A stretch of 64,000 nucleotides of DNA from Oscillospiraceae bacterium (GTDB lineage Bacteria > Bacillota > Clostridia > Oscillospirales > Oscillospiraceae), in NCBI GenBank assembly GCA_009777775.1, contig WRLE01000017.1, positions 5,622 to 69,621 of the forward strand. Reading direction: 5' to 3'. Below are positions 39,930-57,302 of the stretch, piece by piece; positions within the stretch are counted from its first letter, which is position 1, and the number at the start of each line of letters is the position of its first letter. The position numbers and the translations under genes were made by a program. Below the pieces are notes generated by a model. That model saw only the letters and a list, made by a program, of their open reading frames with translations. It was not told the origin of the DNA and searched no databases.

Positions 39930-40136
39930 ATGACTAAGTACACTTTCACAAAGACATCAGTTTTTTCACAGCTCAATAACCTAACTGATATTACAATGAT
40001 AGAAGAATATGCTGACATTTGTGGAATACCTGTAGATAGTCTTGAAGAAGGGAAGCTCGAGATTATGCTGGATATACTGCGAGGGTTTTTCGCTTCTATC
40101 CCCTATGAGCTCCACCTCAATGCGGAGGCTTCCTAA
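39930..40136 (+). pseudogene. Internal fragment of an AAA-ATPase_like/PDDEXK_9-type gene
   Basis: FTKTSVFSQLNNLTDITMIEEYADICGIPVDSLEE and FFASIPYELH resemble the middle of the PF09820-type ATPases common in gut anaerobes. It is only 68 aa and has no ATPase N-terminus. Confidence 0.5.
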
Positions 40137-41607: not shown

Positions 41608-42588
41608 GTGCAATTAACAAAAAAACGATTAGCCATATTTACAATGTTGATGACTGTCATTTATTTTGTTCCACTAATAAACCTACCCGATAGCATTGTA
41701 GGTACAAGAGGTGAGAACTTAATGCTTTTTGTGCCAAAAGTGTTTTTTTTGAGTCTCACCGCTGCGATAAGTACAGGAATACTTCTTGTTTTAATCCTTA
41801 AAAGAAATTATGTAAAAGAACAAATTTCAACTTTTCTAAGATACAGGCATTTACTTAAACTCCTAGTGAAGCGTGACTTCATTATGCGTTATCGAAAGAG
41901 TGTATTAGGTATTTTATGGTCATTATTAAACCCATTGTTAACAATGCTCGTAATAACAATGGTTTTCTCATTTATTTTTAAAAACCAAGTCGATAATTTT
42001 CCAGTTTACTTATTGTCAGGACAAATCATATTTGGATTTTTTAGCGAATCTACTACTCAATCTATGCAGTCAATTCTATCGAGCGAAAGTATAATTAGAA
42101 AAATATATGTTCCAAAGTATATATTTCCCATGGCGAAGGTGTTCTCATCGCTACTAAATTTACTATTTTCATTTCTTGCTTTTTTACTGGTTTTTATAAT
42201 TACTGGAGCTAATTTTTCGTGGACAATGCTATTATTACCAATCCCAATTATATACACCTTTGTGTTTTCACTTGGGATTTCAATGCTCTTAAGTTCCATG
42301 GCGGTTTTTTTCCGCGACCTAACATACTTGTACAGTGTTTTTATTACATTACTAACTTATTTGACCCCTCTATTCTATCCTGTATCGATTCTACCAGAGA
42401 AAGTTGTACCTGTAATTGGCTTTAACCCAATGTATCATTATGTCGATTATGCTCGAAGTGTTGCTTTATATAGTACTGTTCCCGATTTGTGGTCTAATAT
42501 TGTTTGTTTAGGATTTGCACTTGCTGCACTTTGTATAGGAACTTTTGTCTTCATGAACCAGCAGGAAAAATACATACTATATATGTAA
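41608..42588 (+). CDS. wzm: ABC-2 type polysaccharide/teichoic-acid exporter permease (Wzm/TagG)
   Basis: YRHLLKLLVKRDFIMRYRKSVLGILWSLLNPLL followed by six TM segments. GTG start with a roughly 60-aa N-terminal extension carrying an extra TM; the true start is uncertain. Confidence 0.8.
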   Translation: MQLTKKRLAIFTMLMTVIYFVPLINLPDSIVGTRGENLMLFVPKVFFLSLTAAISTGILLVLILKRNYVKEQISTFLRYRHLLKLLVKRDFIMRYRKSVLGILWSLLNPLLTMLVITMVFSFIFKNQVDNFPVYLLSGQIIFGFFSESTTQSMQSILSSESIIRKIYVPKYIFPMAKVFSSLLNLLFSFLAFLLVFIITGANFSWTMLLLPIPIIYTFVFSLGISMLLSSMAVFFRDLTYLYSVFITLLTYLTPLFYPVSILPEKVVPVIGFNPMYHYVDYARSVALYSTVPDLWSNIVCLGFALAALCIGTFVFMNQQEKYILYM

Positions 42589-42605
42589 AAACGAGGATAA
42601 CAAAA

Positions 42606-43343
42606 ATGAATGTAGAATCTGCTATTGAAGTGAATGATGTATCAATGATGTTTCACCTTAGTAAAGATAGAATCGTTGGACTAAAAGAATACATAATAAA
42701 GGCAGTAAAGCGTCAACTTTTTTATGAAGAATTTTGGGCATTAAGAAATATAAGCTTTGATGTTAAAAAAGGTGAGGTTTTTGGCATCATGGGACTAAAC
42801 GGTGCTGGTAAATCTACATTATTAAGAATAATTGCTGGAGTATTTAAACCTACAAAGGGGTATGTAGTTATAAATGGTGCAATTTCTCCTCTTCTTGAAC
42901 TTGGTGCTGGTTTTAGCCCAGAATTTTCTGCACGTGATAACATATACATGAATGGCGCAATGTATGGACACTCTCCGAAATTTATGGATAAACTTTATAA
43001 CGAAATTATCGAATTTGCTGAACTAAAAGACTTCGAAAATGTTGCATTAAAAAATTTTTCAACAGGAATGAGTGCTAGACTAGGCTTTTCAATTGCAACA
43101 AGTGTACAACCTGACATTCTCATAGTAGATGAGGTCTTAGGGGTTGGAGACTATTTGTTTCGGAAAAAGTGCGAAGACCGCATCAACGCCATGATATCGA
43201 ATGGAGCAACTGTACTCATAGTTTCGCACAGTATTAGCACTATTAAGGAAATGTGCACACGTGCTATCCTCTTAGAAAAGGGAGAAGTTAAATGTCTAGG
43301 TAATGTTGATGAGGTATGTGAAGTATATGGTGATAATCTGTAG
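42606..43343 (+). CDS. wzt: Polysaccharide/teichoic-acid ABC exporter ATP-binding protein (Wzt/TagH), short form without a C-terminal carbohydrate-binding domain
   Basis: GAGGA RBS before ATG 42606. Walker A GLNGAGKSTLL, signature FSTGMSARLGFS, Walker B ILIVDEVLGVGD, H-loop VSHS. The ORF-track N-terminal extension overlaps wzm and was rejected. Confidence 0.9.
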   Translation: MNVESAIEVNDVSMMFHLSKDRIVGLKEYIIKAVKRQLFYEEFWALRNISFDVKKGEVFGIMGLNGAGKSTLLRIIAGVFKPTKGYVVINGAISPLLELGAGFSPEFSARDNIYMNGAMYGHSPKFMDKLYNEIIEFAELKDFENVALKNFSTGMSARLGFSIATSVQPDILIVDEVLGVGDYLFRKKCEDRINAMISNGATVLIVSHSISTIKEMCTRAILLEKGEVKCLGNVDEVCEVYGDNL

Positions 43344-46515: not shown

Positions 46516-47673
46516 TTGCTTCATAAATTTATCGTTTGGCTAAAAGCACGATTACCACATGGATTTAAGCAGAAACTGAAAAAGCTACTTGGTATAGGTT
46601 CAACTGCGCAGGAAGTAAGTCTGTTTGCTAGACTCGATATAGATTCATCAAAAATTAATATTGCGATTTATGCTGGCGGAGGTTTAGGTGACTTCATTGT
46701 ATATAAAGCGATAATTGATAGTTTATTAAATAACTACAATTGTATGATTTACCTATTCACTTTGAGTTATGAAAATGCAGTAACCATTCTTGGAAATACA
46801 ATCGGATTAGAAGTTCATTACTCAGTTATGACTCAAAATAACGAGCAGTTTGACCTCGTATTAGATATGGATCATTTTATAAATGTACGAGATTTTAATA
46901 TGAGCAGACTAAAAAATAAATCACTAAAATTATACGATGATGTAAATAGAATTATTGCATATAATAGAGCTAACATCCCCTCTACTGATAATATACTAGC
47001 ACAAAGAAATGTGATAATTTTTCGTGCAAAATACTTAGGGTTAAATAGATGGACTCAATTATCATGTGGCGGCGTGTTCGATATGACCTCTATGCGCAGC
47101 GGAATCACAATAGATGAATGTAGCAGCATTATAGATTCATATAGTTTAAAAAATAACTCATATATAACAATAAGTCGTGGTGCCGATGTTGATATGGGTG
47201 GTATGCGCCAAACAAAGATATGGCCATTGCATCGGTATGTTGAATTTGTAAGTTTATTCAAAGCAAAATATACAACAATTAAAATTGTACAGCTTGCGCT
47301 TAAAGATGAGCCAGAAATACCTGGTACAGACATAGTTATCCGTGATGCAAGCTTTGAGGACGTGAAGGTAATTTTATCTAACTCCCAAGCTCATATATCA
47401 AATGAAGGTGGATTGGTTCACACAGCCACACAACTAGGAACACGATGTATAGTTCCTTTCGGACCGACCCCAGCTCATTATTACGGATATCCTGAAAATA
47501 TAAATATTGTGTCGCCTGTTTGTAAAGGGTGTATGGAAACAACCGATGACTGGTTTCAACGTTGCCCTAGAGGTTATGAATCAGCTGAATGTATGGAAGC
47601 AATAACTGGATATATGATATTAGAAAAATTAGCAAATCATATATTAATTCTAAATGCGGATTATAACTTATGA
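46516..47673 (+). CDS. GT9-like (heptosyltransferase-family) glycosyltransferase, paralog 1
   Basis: INIAIYAGGGLGDFIV (N-terminal GD motif), KIWPLHRYVEFVSLF, ISNEGGLVHTATQLGTRCIVPFGPT. TTG start, with no in-frame ATG nearby. Four-Cys C-terminal motif CKGC...WFQRC...C. Confidence 0.65.
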   Translation: MLHKFIVWLKARLPHGFKQKLKKLLGIGSTAQEVSLFARLDIDSSKINIAIYAGGGLGDFIVYKAIIDSLLNNYNCMIYLFTLSYENAVTILGNTIGLEVHYSVMTQNNEQFDLVLDMDHFINVRDFNMSRLKNKSLKLYDDVNRIIAYNRANIPSTDNILAQRNVIIFRAKYLGLNRWTQLSCGGVFDMTSMRSGITIDECSSIIDSYSLKNNSYITISRGADVDMGGMRQTKIWPLHRYVEFVSLFKAKYTTIKIVQLALKDEPEIPGTDIVIRDASFEDVKVILSNSQAHISNEGGLVHTATQLGTRCIVPFGPTPAHYYGYPENINIVSPVCKGCMETTDDWFQRCPRGYESAECMEAITGYMILEKLANHILILNADYNL

Positions 47674-52087: not shown

Positions 52088-52233
52088 TAATAATTCAATA
52101 TAAAAACCATATAACGATTAGTTAATAAAAATTCGAAATACCAGATTGTATTAAATCATTGATATGCTAACAAAATGGTATTGTTTTAATATATAAATAT
52201 GCATTATAAAATTGTTTCATCAAAGGGAGTTTT

Positions 52234-53250
52234 ATGAATATATTTTCAAAAATTATAAATAGACTAACTAATAATAAACGCTTCTCAATTCTGGAAAATG
52301 ACCGCACAGAACTATTTAGCAGAATCGATGAAATGATGATTCGAATTGATAATATTGAAAACAAAGCTAATACATCATTAAATTCAAATATTACAAAATA
52401 CAATGATTCATACTTGGAATTTGAGTATTTAAATGAACTACTTAGAGTAGCAAAAATGTTGTATGAAACAAGAGAAGACCCCAATACTATATATGCATCA
52501 CCTCCGGAGTATACAAAAGATACTGGGCTGTTGCTTGACGAAAATGTATTTCGTAATTTTAGTCATGCACATGGTTTTTCATTAATATCTTTTTCACAAC
52601 GTAGTCAAGATAAAATTGTTGAAGCATTACTCTTCGAGGCTGGCATTACAAAACCTAGCTACCTCGATATTGGTGCTAATACTCCAGTAGAAATGTCAAA
52701 TACAGCTTTGTTTTACCGAAAGGGGTGTAGTGGTGTTGTTGTAGATGCTAATGAGTCTCTTCGGCAAAGATGGACTGAGTTGCGACCTAACGATATATTT
52801 GTTAATGCTGCTGTTTCAACAATTAGTGGTGAAAAGATACCGTTTTACATGCTGGACATGTACTCACCGCGTAACTCTGTTGATTTTGAAACTATAAATG
52901 CTTTTATAGAAGAATCAAAGAAAACTGAAAATCCTTGGGAAATTATGAAAACAATTGAAGTAACAACCATTACAATAAATGAAATCGTCGATATATATTG
53001 TAATGGGATATTTCCTGACTATTTATCTATAGACATAGAAGGAATGGATTTACATGTTCTTCAAAATGCTGATTTCACCTTATCGGCTCCAAAAGTAATA
53101 AGTATTGAAGACCAATCAACCGAATTGTATCATACACTAAAAGAAAAAGGTTTTTTTCCAATAGTATCTGTTGGAGATACAATCGCTGTTCACAGTAGTT
53201 TAGCACCGATAGTGCGTCCATGGATAGATATCGAAGAATCTAAACTATGA
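52234..53250 (+). CDS. FkbM-family methyltransferase with a 45-aa N-terminal helical module
   Basis: YLDIGANTPVEMSNTALFYRKGCSGVVVDANE (SAM motif I) and LSIDIEGMDLHVL. The N-terminus is homologous to that of the 53313 gene. Confidence 0.75.
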   Translation: MNIFSKIINRLTNNKRFSILENDRTELFSRIDEMMIRIDNIENKANTSLNSNITKYNDSYLEFEYLNELLRVAKMLYETREDPNTIYASPPEYTKDTGLLLDENVFRNFSHAHGFSLISFSQRSQDKIVEALLFEAGITKPSYLDIGANTPVEMSNTALFYRKGCSGVVVDANESLRQRWTELRPNDIFVNAAVSTISGEKIPFYMLDMYSPRNSVDFETINAFIEESKKTENPWEIMKTIEVTTITINEIVDIYCNGIFPDYLSIDIEGMDLHVLQNADFTLSAPKVISIEDQSTELYHTLKEKGFFPIVSVGDTIAVHSSLAPIVRPWIDIEESKL

Positions 53251-53312
53251 TGCTTACATAGATGATGTAATGGACAAGTTCTATTTAGAGCATCTCATCA
53301 AAGGAGTATTAT

Positions 53313-54590
53313 ATGAATATACTTAAAAAAATTAAAAATAGATTGATAGATAACCAACGCTTTACAATACTTGAAAAAGATCGATCAGAGTTATTCAATC
53401 GAATTGATGAAATCTGGACTCGTCTAGAAGATATAGATAAAAAAACAATTAATAATTCATCATCATTTAATATAGGGAATTCTAGCGCAACGAATGAACC
53501 TAATAACCCTCTCAATCAAAATAAATTGAACATTGCGTTTTTAATACGTGGTGGTTTAGGTGATATTGTAATGCTGGCAAACTATATCTATATGTTTCGT
53601 AAAAAATTCTCTGATGACATAATAAATATTGATATTTTTTCTGATGATCACAGATTCGAATCAACACGAACCGTTTTTAATGGTGTTCAATCTAGCTTTA
53701 TTAATAATCTTTATGCTAGAAACAAAGATGCAGCTAAATTGAATTATTATGATTTATTTATCGATATAGCACGATATCCTGATATAAAGAAGCGCGATTT
53801 ATCAAGAATATCAGAAATGGTTCCTGAGTTAATTGAATATATATTTTTATGTGAACGTTTTCGTGCAGAATACTCACGTTTTTTTACTCACCAAGGACCT
53901 ACAGATGGTCAATCCGCAATGGTCAGCATCATTAAAGGAGCTAAACGATACCAACAAGCTGATATTTATGGATTCCTTGGTATGTCCGAAAAATATGAAC
54001 ATAGTATTCATATTGCAGAAAATGAGAATGCTTACTTACAACAGCTTGGTTTATATAATCGAAACTTCATTACAATTAATCGAGGAAACGATAGTGCGTA
54101 TGCTAAAAACAGTACCAAAATCTGGCCTCTCTCATATTACGGTATTTTAATACGTTTATTAAAAAAGAGATTTCCCAACATTATCTTGGTACAAATTGGT
54201 GCAGACAGCACAGTATTTCCAATTTTACCAGGTGCTGATATGCATCTTGTTTCTCAGACTAGTCTCGAACAAGTAAAGGTATTGCTAAAACATGCAACTT
54301 TACATATTGATGGCGAAGGCGGTTTAGTACATATGAGACATGCTTTGAATGGCGGTAAATCAATCGTACTATTTGGTCCAACATCTGCTGAGTTTTTTGG
54401 TTATTCTGAGAATGAAAATATTGTTGGAAAAGGGTGCGATGTCTGGTGCGAATGGGCATTTAGTAATTGGCAAGATCGTTGTTTACGAGGAAAATCCTCT
54501 GCTTTTTCGCATTGTATGGCATCAATTATTCCTGAAAAAGTTTTAATGCATATAGAAAATGTGTTAACAAATAATCAGGAGGAGCAATAA
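53313..54590 (+). CDS. GT9-like glycosyltransferase, paralog 2, with the same N-terminal helical module
   Basis: LNIAFLIRGGLGDIVM, KIWPLSYYGILIRLL, HIDGEGGLVHMRHALNGGKSIVLFGPT, and the Cys motif CDVWC...WQDRC...C. Confidence 0.65.
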   Translation: MNILKKIKNRLIDNQRFTILEKDRSELFNRIDEIWTRLEDIDKKTINNSSSFNIGNSSATNEPNNPLNQNKLNIAFLIRGGLGDIVMLANYIYMFRKKFSDDIINIDIFSDDHRFESTRTVFNGVQSSFINNLYARNKDAAKLNYYDLFIDIARYPDIKKRDLSRISEMVPELIEYIFLCERFRAEYSRFFTHQGPTDGQSAMVSIIKGAKRYQQADIYGFLGMSEKYEHSIHIAENENAYLQQLGLYNRNFITINRGNDSAYAKNSTKIWPLSYYGILIRLLKKRFPNIILVQIGADSTVFPILPGADMHLVSQTSLEQVKVLLKHATLHIDGEGGLVHMRHALNGGKSIVLFGPTSAEFFGYSENENIVGKGCDVWCEWAFSNWQDRCLRGKSSAFSHCMASIIPEKVLMHIENVLTNNQEEQ

Positions 54591-54593
54591 TAT

Positions 54594-56156
54594 ATGAGTA
54601 ATAGTAAAATAACTGTAGCATTTAGATTAAATGGTGGTATAGGTACTTATTTAGTCGAATTAAACTTCATCAAGTTCTTTTATGATGCTTTTCCTGATGT
54701 AATTATTTCGGTATTTGGTTCTACTTCAGAAGCAGTTAATGCTGGACTTATGAACTCCCAATACTTTATCGCAAAATATCATGTTCGTAGTATGTTTCGC
54801 GAGTATGGCTATGATTTAATAATTGACTTAAACTGGTTTCCAAAAGTTATATATGTAAATATGCCAAAAATTCAAACTCAAGTACCCGGACTTCCTGAAA
54901 TAATAAAACAATGGGTAGCTTTTGAGACTGATCCTGCAACAAACAATTTTATTCGAAATGACTCGATTTTTGATTATAACATATATACATATGCTATAGC
55001 AAACAAAAAAAACAGGCTAAATGTAATGGATATTAATGAAGCTTTAGGTATAGAAAGTCAATTTCGCTATACCTTGTATCCACTCAGAGACGAACTTGAT
55101 GTACTTAATAAATTTGGCTTAAGTGAGCTTAATTACATAACTTTACAACAAGGAGTTAATGCTGACTCAAATTCAAAACAATCTCCTAAACAATGGCCAA
55201 TTCATAATTTCAATGTACTTTGTCGTTTACTTAAACATGAATATCCCGATATTATTTTAGTGCAACTCGGAGAGTTAGCTAATAACGAACCAATCGAAGG
55301 TGTTGATATGAATTATTTAGGAGACACAGACTTTGAGGAACTTAAAATACTTTTGAAAAACGCATTTTTACATATAGACGGTGAGTGCGGTATGATGCAT
55401 ATGCGTAAAGCTATGTTAGCTGGTCCTTCGGTAGTATTGTATGGTCAAACTCCTATAGAAATTTATAGCTATGATGATAATTTGAATATCTATACTAATG
55501 TTTGCATGGGATGTAGTAAGTTATTTAGCGGATGGAAAAGACGTTGTCTTTTGAAAGAGCCAATTTGTATGACTTCAATAACACCCGAAATGGTACTTAA
55601 TGTTATTAGAAATCATATTGAAAATGAAACTAAATACAAAACAATCAAACTCACAAAACTTCAGGAGCTTTTATCCGATTCAACTATTAAGCTTGATCCC
55701 GAATGGGTTGAATTGTGGTTAAAGGAACGAATTATTTACGATTATTGGGTAGAAAAAATAAAGCTAAAGGATTTATTAGCTACAAACTTGACAGAGAATG
55801 GTTATGTACCTATTCCGCTTGAAGAAACAGCAGCATTCAAATACATAAGTGGAAATCATCAACAATACATTGAATACATAAAATTGAACGATATTTATAA
55901 TCCTGGCCACGAGCGTACATTGGAAAAAATTGATAATTTAATTGAGCAACTGAACACACACGGATATAACCAAAATCAATTTATAGTAATTGATGGAAAC
56001 AATATTATATTTGATGGCTCGCATCGCGCAAGTTGGTTGATGTATATGTATGGCGGTGATTATGAAGTAGAAACGATTAAGATATATCTTGATGAGAATA
56101 CTGGCTCTGTTCTATACTCACAATTAATTGAAGAAATTTCAGAATTGAACGAGTAA
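54594..56156 (+). CDS. GT9-like glycosyltransferase, paralog 3, fused to a C-terminal ParB/Srx-like domain
   Basis: ITVAFRLNGGIGTYLV, KQWPIHNFNVLCRLL, HIDGECGMMHMRKAMLAGPSVVLYGQT, and the Cys motif CMGC...WKRRC...C. The C-terminal 140 aa ends in IEQLNTHGYNQNQFIVIDGNNIIFDGSHRASWL (the DGxHR motif of the ParB/sulfiredoxin fold). Confidence 0.6.
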   Translation: MSNSKITVAFRLNGGIGTYLVELNFIKFFYDAFPDVIISVFGSTSEAVNAGLMNSQYFIAKYHVRSMFREYGYDLIIDLNWFPKVIYVNMPKIQTQVPGLPEIIKQWVAFETDPATNNFIRNDSIFDYNIYTYAIANKKNRLNVMDINEALGIESQFRYTLYPLRDELDVLNKFGLSELNYITLQQGVNADSNSKQSPKQWPIHNFNVLCRLLKHEYPDIILVQLGELANNEPIEGVDMNYLGDTDFEELKILLKNAFLHIDGECGMMHMRKAMLAGPSVVLYGQTPIEIYSYDDNLNIYTNVCMGCSKLFSGWKRRCLLKEPICMTSITPEMVLNVIRNHIENETKYKTIKLTKLQELLSDSTIKLDPEWVELWLKERIIYDYWVEKIKLKDLLATNLTENGYVPIPLEETAAFKYISGNHQQYIEYIKLNDIYNPGHERTLEKIDNLIEQLNTHGYNQNQFIVIDGNNIIFDGSHRASWLMYMYGGDYEVETIKIYLDENTGSVLYSQLIEEISELNE

Positions 56157-56261
56157 TAGGTTTTATAAACATTAATATAGTAAGCTTTATCATCAGGCAT
56201 TAACAAAAATCTCATTTGTTAATCGTTTTTGAAATATATTTATAAACCAAGGAGGTGTATG

Positions 56262-57302
56262 ATGGAACAATTATGGAAAAATATACATAACCTATATTCA
56301 AAAAATAAAAGTATTGTTATTCCAACAAACAATGAGGAGTCAATGATTGCTATTGAGTCATTGACAGACTACCATAAGTCACGCGGGCTTGACTATATTG
56401 CTTCTCGTCTTGATTTTTTATTGATAGCTCAAGCAATTACTCTTTACTATTCGAAACATGATCGTTATCAAACTCTTGATTCTGAAGCAAAGTACATAGT
56501 TGATTATCTTGATACTGATGAGTTTTACCATCATATAATGCGGTATAGAGTTTATCCATTAGATTCACAGATGATCTCGTTTACAAAACAATTTTATAAT
56601 AATATATATCCTCATACTGGATACCCTCAAATTGACAATATCGAAGAATCATTAAGTATTGATAATGGGTTCATTTACGCGAATCCTAATAATCATAAAG
56701 TTTATCTCAAAGGCAATTTCGATGAAGCTCGTGTTTATTGGAGAGCACTAATGACTGAACAAATACCAAACCATCCTCATTGTTATCTAAATGAATCAAA
56801 CTTCAACATAAATAATGGAGAAATAATTGCAGACATAGGCGCAGCAGAAGGTTACTTTAGCATAGCTCATATAAATAAAATAAAACATGCATACATATTT
56901 GAATGCGATGATTCCTGGTTTAATTTACTAAAAAAGACATATGCTCCATTTAAAGATAAAGTAACTCTAATAAAAGGTTATGTTGGAGATGGAAACGGAA
57001 ACATCTCTCTTGATGAATATTTTAAAGATAAAGATAAACCTACATTTTACAAACTTGATGTTGAAGGAGCTGAAGGTTCTGTGTTGCGATGCATGAGTAC
57101 GCTTTTGCATGATCCCTCATTACCAATGCGATTAGCAATATGCACATACCATCGCCAAGAAGATGCTCCATACTTTGAATGGTTACTAGGTGACACTTTT
57201 CATAAACATTACTCAAATTCATATTTTTGGCATATGCCTGACCCTATGCCTCCATTTCTGCGCCGAGGTGTAATGCGTGCAACAAAAATGCTAAATAAAT
57301 AA
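56262..57302 (+). CDS. FkbM-family methyltransferase
   Basis: GGAGG RBS before ATG 56262. IADIGAAEGYFS (SAM motif I) and YKLDVEGAEGSVL. Confidence 0.75.
   Translation: MEQLWKNIHNLYSKNKSIVIPTNNEESMIAIESLTDYHKSRGLDYIASRLDFLLIAQAITLYYSKHDRYQTLDSEAKYIVDYLDTDEFYHHIMRYRVYPLDSQMISFTKQFYNNIYPHTGYPQIDNIEESLSIDNGFIYANPNNHKVYLKGNFDEARVYWRALMTEQIPNHPHCYLNESNFNINNGEIIADIGAAEGYFSIAHINKIKHAYIFECDDSWFNLLKKTYAPFKDKVTLIKGYVGDGNGNISLDEYFKDKDKPTFYKLDVEGAEGSVLRCMSTLLHDPSLPMRLAICTYHRQEDAPYFEWLLGDTFHKHYSNSYFWHMPDPMPPFLRRGVMRATKMLNK

Follow-up and report, generated by a model that had tools for sequence, protein, structure and literature searches.

Why should a methyltransferase and a glycosyltransferase with unrelated catalytic domains begin with the same peptide? 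The question is raised by two neighbouring genes in a 64,000-nucleotide stretch of an Oscillospiraceae bacterium genome (contig WRLE01000017.1, positions 5,622 to 69,621; hereafter the window): MT1, which encodes an FkbM methyltransferase, and GT9b, which encodes a GT9 glycosyltransferase. Judged by sequence, the shared peptide is a one-unit member of a family of N-terminal tags in which a cap is followed by one to seven copies of a repeat unit. The reading that we favour, by a modest degree, is that the tag is an anchor to the membrane or to a complex joined to a coiled-coil stalk, like the chain terminator WbdD with its polarity reversed, and that it co-localises MT1 and GT9b.

An earlier note on this DNA had described a shared N-terminal module in the two enzymes. 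Both peptides are found at the starts of the two genes, and 26 of their first 44 residues are identical in an ungapped alignment. When the full-length proteins are compared by BLASTP, the N-termini alone align (E 1e-13), and the local alignment stands far above those of shuffled sequences (z = 19.7). The two peptides are homologous; past residue 44, the proteins are wholly divergent. Pfam assigns the catalytic parts to FkbM/Methyltransf_21 and Glyco_transf_9, in agreement with the note's statement that they are unrelated. The source genome has exactly two copies of the tag, those of MT1 and GT9b.

Both open reading frames (ORFs) have strong ribosome-binding sites before their starts at 52234 and 53313. 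The context of these sites is conserved over 11–12 bases, as had been noted, with CATCAAAGGGAG upstream of MT1 and CATCAAAGGAG upstream of GT9b. Since this context is common to both genes, the duplicated stretch reached back beyond the start codon. The 132 coding bases of the tag are 71% identical, with 32/44 matches at first codon positions, 38/44 at second and 24/44 at third, and different codons are used at 14 of the 26 conserved residues. The nonsynonymous divergence (dN) is ~0.2 and the synonymous divergence (dS) 0.6–2.4, with dN/dS ranging from 0.09 (NG86) to 0.33 (LWL85). The codon-position pattern, the differing codons and the dN/dS values together argue that the copies stem from an old duplication and are maintained by purifying selection on the peptide. 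Recent gene conversion within the window was considered and rejected, because synonymous sites are near saturation.

The same data bear on the possibility that recombination during assembly of the cassette left the shared 5ʹ end as a neutral relic, or that this end is an element that functions as nucleic acid (e.g. a translation-initiation region), in either case with no role for the protein. Such an origin would fit a similarity that begins upstream of the start codon and covers the ribosome-binding site. It would also fit the AT-rich cluster in which the genes lie (30–35% G+C, or 28–36% across positions 40000–64000 of the window, against 41% for the genome), a composition consistent with an acquired cassette. 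However, the protein has been conserved while synonymous changes have come close to saturation, identity is lowest at third codon positions, and the peptide motif recurs in genomes of very different DNA composition. We consider this explanation highly improbable.

What kind of structure is the tag? It is helical, and consists of a basic amphipathic cap helix (residues 2–13) and one 28-residue heptad unit (residues 17–44), followed by a linker. In the AlphaFold2 model of GT9b, helices at residues 2–13 (predicted local distance difference test score, pLDDT, ~66) and 21–48 (pLDDT 54–78) are separated by a break at 14–20, and residues 49–71 are unstructured, with pLDDT below 50 at 49–61. The low-confidence model of MT1 has a helix at residues 3–13. 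Both caps fit that of the family, M-[SN]-W-[FL]-x-K-[IL]-x-x-[KR]-[IV]-T, and the hydrophobic moment of the MT1 cap (0.62) is reached by 1.3% of shuffled sequences. The charges over residues 1–20 are +4/+5 and 0/-1; residues 21–44 are net negative and make up an acidic heptad helix.

The unit has the motif R-h-x-x-L-E-x-D-R-x-E-L-F-x-R-h-D. A register that starts at residue 17 places F17, L20, R24, L27, I31, M/I34, I/L38 and I41 at a and d (M34 and I38 in MT1), such that each of these positions is hydrophobic or Arg. At the core positions a, d, e and g, 12/16 residues are identical between the two proteins, and at the surface positions b, c and f the figure is 4/12, a difference with a Fisher p of 0.053. 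Against a profile of 24 units, MT1 scores 49.3 bits and GT9b 44.2 bits, and the MT1 unit agrees with the consensus of 27 units. The unit opens with R-h-x-x-h-E, a six-residue pattern that presumably corresponds to a published coiled-coil trimerisation motif. There is also a weak local likeness, at RIDE-x-x-x-R-I/L-D-x-I/L-E, to HSBP1-type trimeric coiled coils (PF06825; PDB 3ci9). The E-values are 0.0011 in Pfam and 0.41 in PDB. At 19.2 bits the Pfam score falls short of the curated 28.6, and membership in HSBP1 was rejected; we take the likeness as a hint of a short coiled coil and not as evidence of membership. The consistent heptad register, the predicted 28-residue helix and the weak matches to coiled-coil families all point to the helical or coiled-coil module that the note had proposed.

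Relatives of the tag are few, and they carry more units. A profile of the MT1 and GT9b modules, searched against 1.84 billion representative proteins, gave 10 matches: MT1, six proteins with tandem units, and three generic or low-complexity coiled-coil repeats. The six tandem-unit proteins have a similar N-terminal cap (MSWFxKIIEKVTHR...) ahead of the units. A word search with residues 1–176 of the family member P0005 added two members among the 8000 candidates listed, and three more came from the loci themselves, for a full-length set of 11 proteins. These have 1, 1, 2, 2, 2, 2, 3, 4, 4, 5 and 7 units, spaced by 21, 28, 31–34 or 41 residues, and the relatives with 2–7 units have up to ~270 residues before the catalytic domain. 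The unit consensus across the family is R-h-[AST]-[VI]-L-E-x-D-R-[TDS]-E-L-F-x-R-h-D-x-L, in which the polar residues E6, D8, R9, E11, R15 and D17 are invariant. Attached to the tag are polysaccharide pyruvyltransferases (PS_pyruv_trans; P0002, P0005, P0009 and L007 8105-9661), TylF-type O-methyltransferases (P0011 and L007 9683-10822) and a second type of FkbM enzyme (P0007, P0012 and L006 9839-11086); counting the FkbM and GT9 enzymes of the window, five types of catalytic domain bear it. MT1 and GT9b each combine the features that define the family, namely an exact N-terminal cap, the unit or units, a catalytic domain, and location in a cluster with heptose and Wzm/Wzt genes. The module is portable, as the earlier note had supposed: cap and unit occur on further catalytic types in related clusters, the listed homologues of GT9b lack them, and a second genome shares them between two adjacent enzymes.

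The tag family is rare. Pfam, NCBIfam and PDB have no entry that covers the tag, with weak matches to short coiled-coil families only, and a search of PDB by sequence and profile, with a best E of 0.17, revealed no relative of solved structure. A word-indexed search with MT1 residues 1–46 returned MT1 alone. Searches with unit and module profiles in 300 genomes of the same bacterial family and 400 of the same order found no tag beyond the source genome; a weak profile match to a MarR-type regulator (G095/L002) was taken as chance. A scan of 185,579 GTDB species genomes with one narrow pattern yielded two loci, and pattern scans of JGI metagenomes yielded no loci. The named sources of family loci are a Caproicibacter metagenome-assembled genome (MAG) and a rabbit-gut Oscillospiraceae MAG. 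Within the three genomes checked, units are confined to genes of the cluster type described below.

How did GT9b come to have the tag? At least 150 homologues of GT9b exist, with up to 54% identity, and the unit is absent from all 119 matches listed. The closest of these start with MNKLKDYWRRWCLCYRENGLKYTVKKTF, and other homologues with still different segments. Compared with the N-termini of its orthologues, that of GT9b scores z<2 in all but one case (3.9), and we therefore rejected the idea that it is a diverged orthologue N-terminus. Since the listed homologues lack the tag, it appears to have been grafted onto GT9b. Locus L011 has a coiled-coil TylF methyltransferase whose cap region resembles the window tags (z ~4.4) and whose gene precedes an orthologue of GT9b. 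The gene order tagged modifier, GT9b, GT9c is common to L011 and the window, and the GT9b-GT9c pair is found in both L010 and L011. In the simplest history, a segment of ~150 bases that spans the ribosome-binding site and the first 44 codons would have been copied from a modifier-type gene and would have displaced the native N-terminus of GT9b. Across this GT9 subfamily (window 53313-53525, P0014-P0132), the 25–125 residues before the GGxGD motif are highly variable, with at least five unrelated types of segment (WRRW-type, DYYDDLRNRV...LIWWNFK, a short KERLIHIEDKV helix, a PF22674 domain, or none). These segments look like exchangeable address tags.

The variety of N-termini is an argument for a simpler role, in which the tag is a peripheral membrane anchor only, interchangeable with others, and without specific oligomerisation, enzyme pairing or effect on chain length. 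At least five other kinds of segment, of similar size, occur in GT9b homologues, and several of them are basic and rich in aromatic residues (e.g. MNKLKDYWRRWCLCYRENGLKYTVKKTF), which suggests that any membrane-seeking segment may suffice. The basic, amphipathic cap and the single unit of stalk are also as expected of a plain anchor. In contrast, conservation runs through the acidic heptad helix, which does not have the look of a membrane binder, lipid binding does not explain the six invariant polar residues of the unit, and anchoring needs no tandem amplification to seven units. We think it rather unlikely that the tag is an anchor and nothing else.

A second case of sharing is provided by locus L007, from the rabbit-gut MAG, where adjacent genes for a pyruvyltransferase and a TylF methyltransferase both have the cap with units (four and two, respectively). 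Their repeats are 83% identical over 163 nucleotides, and 6/6 units are nearest to a unit of the partner gene and not to the orthologous enzymes of other clusters. In the window, the nearest relative of the GT9b unit is the MT1 unit, which is itself as close to units elsewhere. Together, these patterns suggest that tags track the cluster and not the type of enzyme, as would be expected of either co-adaptation to a shared assembly or frequent exchange by recombination inside a cluster. The pyruvyltransferase gene of L007 has an unusual start (L007:8105-8145), with ATG followed by a (GA)n run encoding (RE)n and then by the cap; slippage in this 5ʹ tract could switch the gene on and off.

All family members with readable surroundings lie in one type of cluster, with genes for GmhA, HldE, GmhB, Wzm/Wzt and several GT9-like proteins, and usually for an HldD-like epimerase. 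In the window, wzm and wzt share one co-oriented cluster (~40.7–57.8 kb) with MT1 and GT9b, and all related loci have the exporter too; the exporters of L004, L006 and L007 are 45–53% identical to that of the window (46–53% for Wzt). The window Wzt, of at most 279 residues, matches ATP-binding cassette (ABC_tran) and related ATPase domains only, and has no C-terminal carbohydrate-binding module. The same is true of the Wzt proteins of L004, L006, L010, L011 and L018 (242–269 residues), for which the recorded domains are ABC-type ATPase only. Five loci have the tagged gene directly upstream of a gene for a GT9-like protein of ~540 residues (L004:11291-12907, L006:11246-12868, L007:10806-12428, L016:6287-7894 in L016/L017, and L018:3918-5561). 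This protein has no Pfam match. It is a candidate for the polymerase and also for the partner to which the tag docks. Its counterpart in the window is GT9a, with 35–38% identity over ~330 residues. The second FkbM-like enzyme of the window, MT2, is 35–37% identical to the tagged FkbM enzymes of L004 and L006, and BLASTP pairs its residues 27–357 with residues 96–412 (L006) and 114–422 (L004). Those counterparts have a cap and 2–3 units, and MT2 lacks these first 95–115 residues. With MT2 untagged and its counterparts in L004, L006 and P0007 tagged, the window carries the tag on different enzymes than its sister clusters do. The start of MT2, MEQLWKNIHNLYSKNK, was considered as a remnant of a cap and is too weak to claim. 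Table 1 lists the features of the window.

Table 1. Positions in the window of the two tagged genes, their parts, and related genes of the cluster.
Feature	Position	Strand	Basis or remark
MT1 (FkbM methyltransferase gene)	52234-53250	+	
MT1 ribosome-binding context CATCAAAGGGAG	52218..52229	+	Aligns with 53296-53306
MT1 N-cap, residues 1-14 (MNIFSKIINRLTNN)	52234..52275	+	Basic amphipathic helix; hydrophobic moment
MT1 heptad unit, residues 16-44 (RFSILENDRTELFSRIDEMMIRIDNIENK)	52279..52365	+	a/d register, unit consensus/profile
MT1 polar linker (ANTSLNSNITKYNDS) and uncharacterised helical region	52366..52665	+	Sequence; no family match
MT1 FkbM methyltransferase domain, residues 145-299	52666..53130	+	PF05050
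GT9b (GT9 glycosyltransferase gene)	53313-54590	+	
GT9b ribosome-binding context CATCAAAGGAG	53296..53306	+	Matches string upstream of MT1
GT9b N-cap, residues 1-14 (MNILKKIKNRLIDN)	53313..53354	+	AlphaFold2 helix 2-13
GT9b heptad unit, residues 16-44 (RFTILEKDRSELFNRIDEIWTRLEDIDKK)	53358..53444	+	AlphaFold2 helix 21-48 (pLDDT 72-78), unit profile
GT9b Asn/Ser-rich disordered linker, residues 49-71	53457..53525	+	AlphaFold2, no secondary structure
GT9b GT-B catalytic domain, GT9 heptosyltransferase-like	53526..54590	+	PF01075, AlphaFold2, Foldseek
Wzm	41608-42588	+	ABC2_membrane match
Wzt	ORF 42504-43343, likely ATG 42606	+	ABC_tran match
GT9a	46516..47673	+	Counterpart of ~540-residue GT9-like protein in related clusters; identity, synteny
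GT9c	54594..56156	+	Conserved downstream partner of GT9b; pair recurs elsewhere
MT2, second FkbM-like enzyme	56229..57302	+	BLASTP to tagged FkbM enzymes

How does this arrangement compare with known systems? Coiled-coil proteins are a characteristic marker of chain-terminating, ABC-dependent glycan systems (PMC11231755, from the Whitfield laboratory). WbdD, from E. coli O8/O9a and Klebsiella O3/O5, is a chain-terminating methyltransferase or kinase-methyltransferase on a coiled-coil ruler (PMC3482155, PMC11231755), with a stalk that bears an amphipathic anchor where it meets the membrane, and every characterised terminated system has a cap-binding module on Wzt (PMC11231755). The likeness to WbdD that the earlier note had drawn stands for the layout of anchor, stalk, capping-type enzyme and wzm/wzt locus; it fails for the length of the stalk and for Wzt. 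As in WbdD, a predicted coiled coil connects a soluble enzyme of capping type with an end that may be amphipathic and would bind the membrane or a partner, the cluster is wzm/wzt-dependent, a candidate polymerase gene adjoins, and stalk length varies among relatives. Unlike WbdD, the putative anchor is N-terminal and the enzyme C-terminal, the tag is borne by a glycosyltransferase as well as by a separate methyltransferase, and a PDB profile search found no significant similarity of sequence. The window stalk is a single 28-residue unit, whereas that of WbdD has more than 100 residues; the extended coiled coils of WbdD and WbbB, at ~100 residues or more, would be matched by the relatives with 2–7 units.

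That the enzyme at the far end of the coiled coil can be a glycosyltransferase is known from WbbB (Klebsiella O12 / Raoultella terrigena) and from ORF6(O7) and ORF7(O4) of Klebsiella, systems in which polymerase and terminator modules are spread over one or several proteins (PMC11231755). Their coiled coils are long and central or C-terminal, while the window tag is short and N-terminal; their caps are Kdo or methyl phosphate, read by a Wzt with a cap-binding module, which the window Wzt lacks. A tag duplicated on two proteins and a GT9 transferase are further differences.

Could the window nonetheless encode a true terminator of the WbdD type, in which a terminal sugar is added by GT9b and methylated by MT1, and the modal chain length is fixed by the coiled coil? 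The layout of anchor, stalk and enzymes of capping type within a wzm/wzt locus is what such a system would have, a coiled-coil protein is by the published rule the mark of a terminator system (PMC11231755), and the number of units varies among relatives. However, the window stalk measures ~4 nm, none of the related clusters examined has a carbohydrate-binding module on Wzt, nor does the window, and methylation could just as well occur on each repeat unit along the glycan. A terminator of this type therefore seems to us unlikely.

We propose instead that the tag is an anchor with a stalk that places two enzymes together, since the family has the terminator layout in reverse polarity, with stalks of varying length. 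The cap helix would most likely lie on the cytoplasmic face of the membrane or on a partner in glycan assembly, the heptad unit would most likely form a short oligomeric coiled coil, and the disordered linker would tether the catalytic domain. A duplication of DNA starting upstream of the ribosome-binding site would have grafted the tag onto GT9b in place of its usual N-terminus. GT9b and MT1 would then occupy one position on the assembly machinery, at equal height and perhaps as parts of a single hetero-oligomer, and could act consecutively, with a sugar being added and then methylated. In the window, the short stalk and flexible linker are likely to bring GT9b and MT1 to one spot. For the relatives with many units, the stalk could be a spacer like that of WbdD, in the order anchor, stalk, enzyme.

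Several observations weigh against this proposal. A single unit of ~4 nm is too short to measure a polymer, and Wzt lacks the carbohydrate-binding module that is common to all characterised terminator systems; the short stalk, and the ATPase-only Wzt of the window and of the related clusters examined, make a ruler role in the window doubtful. The GT9b cap is weakly amphipathic (hydrophobic moment 0.50, matched by 15% of shuffled sequences), and the amphipathicity of the heptad helix is not significant in either protein (15.8% of shuffles reach the moment of MT1 and 6.1% that of GT9b). The pLDDT of the module helices is moderate (54–78). Unit spacings of 31–34 and 41 residues do not correspond to whole numbers of heptads, so that an unbroken coiled coil along the multi-unit arrays is not assured. 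The unequal numbers of units in the L007 partners, four versus two, argue against a strict heteromer of matched length. Lastly, the MT1 unit has 63% identity to units of other clusters, compared with 59% to that of GT9b.

A bolder extension of the proposed anchor and stalk is that LExDRxELF units are the quantised elements of a glycan ruler in Gram-positives, one that needs no transporter able to read a cap. The distance from the membrane at which a modifying enzyme acts would depend on how many units it carries, and enzymes of a cluster that share the tag would assemble on one hetero-oligomeric stalk. We regard this as unlikely. If it were true, swaps or amplification of units would re-programme both which enzymes work together and how long the surface glycan becomes.

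A coiled-coil stalk on a capping enzyme is the accepted marker of length-controlled, ABC-exported glycans, and the general kind is already known. The characterised examples are Gram-negative, with a central or C-terminal stalk and a cap-reading Wzt. Gut Clostridia have a distinct repeat family in the corresponding structural part, N-terminal and in 1–7 copies. What is new is a family defined by the sequence of its cap and unit, with N-terminal polarity, five types of catalytic domain and no cap-reading Wzt. Also new are a GT9 enzyme that traded its own N-terminus for the tag and the repeated sharing of a tag by two different enzymes of one cluster, in two cases, the window and L007. The unit provides a searchable motif for such enzymes in poorly annotated gut genomes, and the relatives offer a natural series of stalk lengths for testing the ruler idea in Gram-positives. 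GT9b itself is a concrete example of an address tag transferred between classes of enzyme.

MT1 matches PF05050 with 57.6 bits (E 2.3e-15; cut-off 22.7) and TIGR01444 with 35.5 bits, slightly below the cut-off of 37.7. Its region between the unit and the FkbM domain has no family match in Pfam and NCBIfam scans. An AlphaFold2 run on MT1 without an alignment gave a pLDDT of 33.6, too low to use, and homologues in the 300 genomes of the bacterial family are remote at best (34% identity over the catalytic part). GT9b matches PF01075 with 40.6 bits (cut-off 22). Its AlphaFold2 model has a mean pLDDT of 89.9, above 90 in the GT-B domain, and the top Foldseek matches are WaaF (1psw), a Veillonella GT9 protein (3tov), WaaC and TibC. 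By sequence match and predicted structure, GT9b is a heptosyltransferase-like member of GT9 with a GT-B fold. In an alignment of 106 homologues, three cysteines (Cys375, Cys379 and Cys390) never vary and a fourth, Cys401, is nearly invariant; this four-cysteine motif fits the presence of the iron-containing heptosyltransferase TibC among the structural matches.

The exporter also has variable N-termini. Three sister clusters have a Wzm with an extension of ~230 residues, which comprises one membrane helix and then a non-helical domain (L004:4052-5512, L007:2127-3593 and L018:284-1741). The extension is absent from the Wzm of L006, and the Wzm of the window has an N-terminal extension of ~70 residues only.

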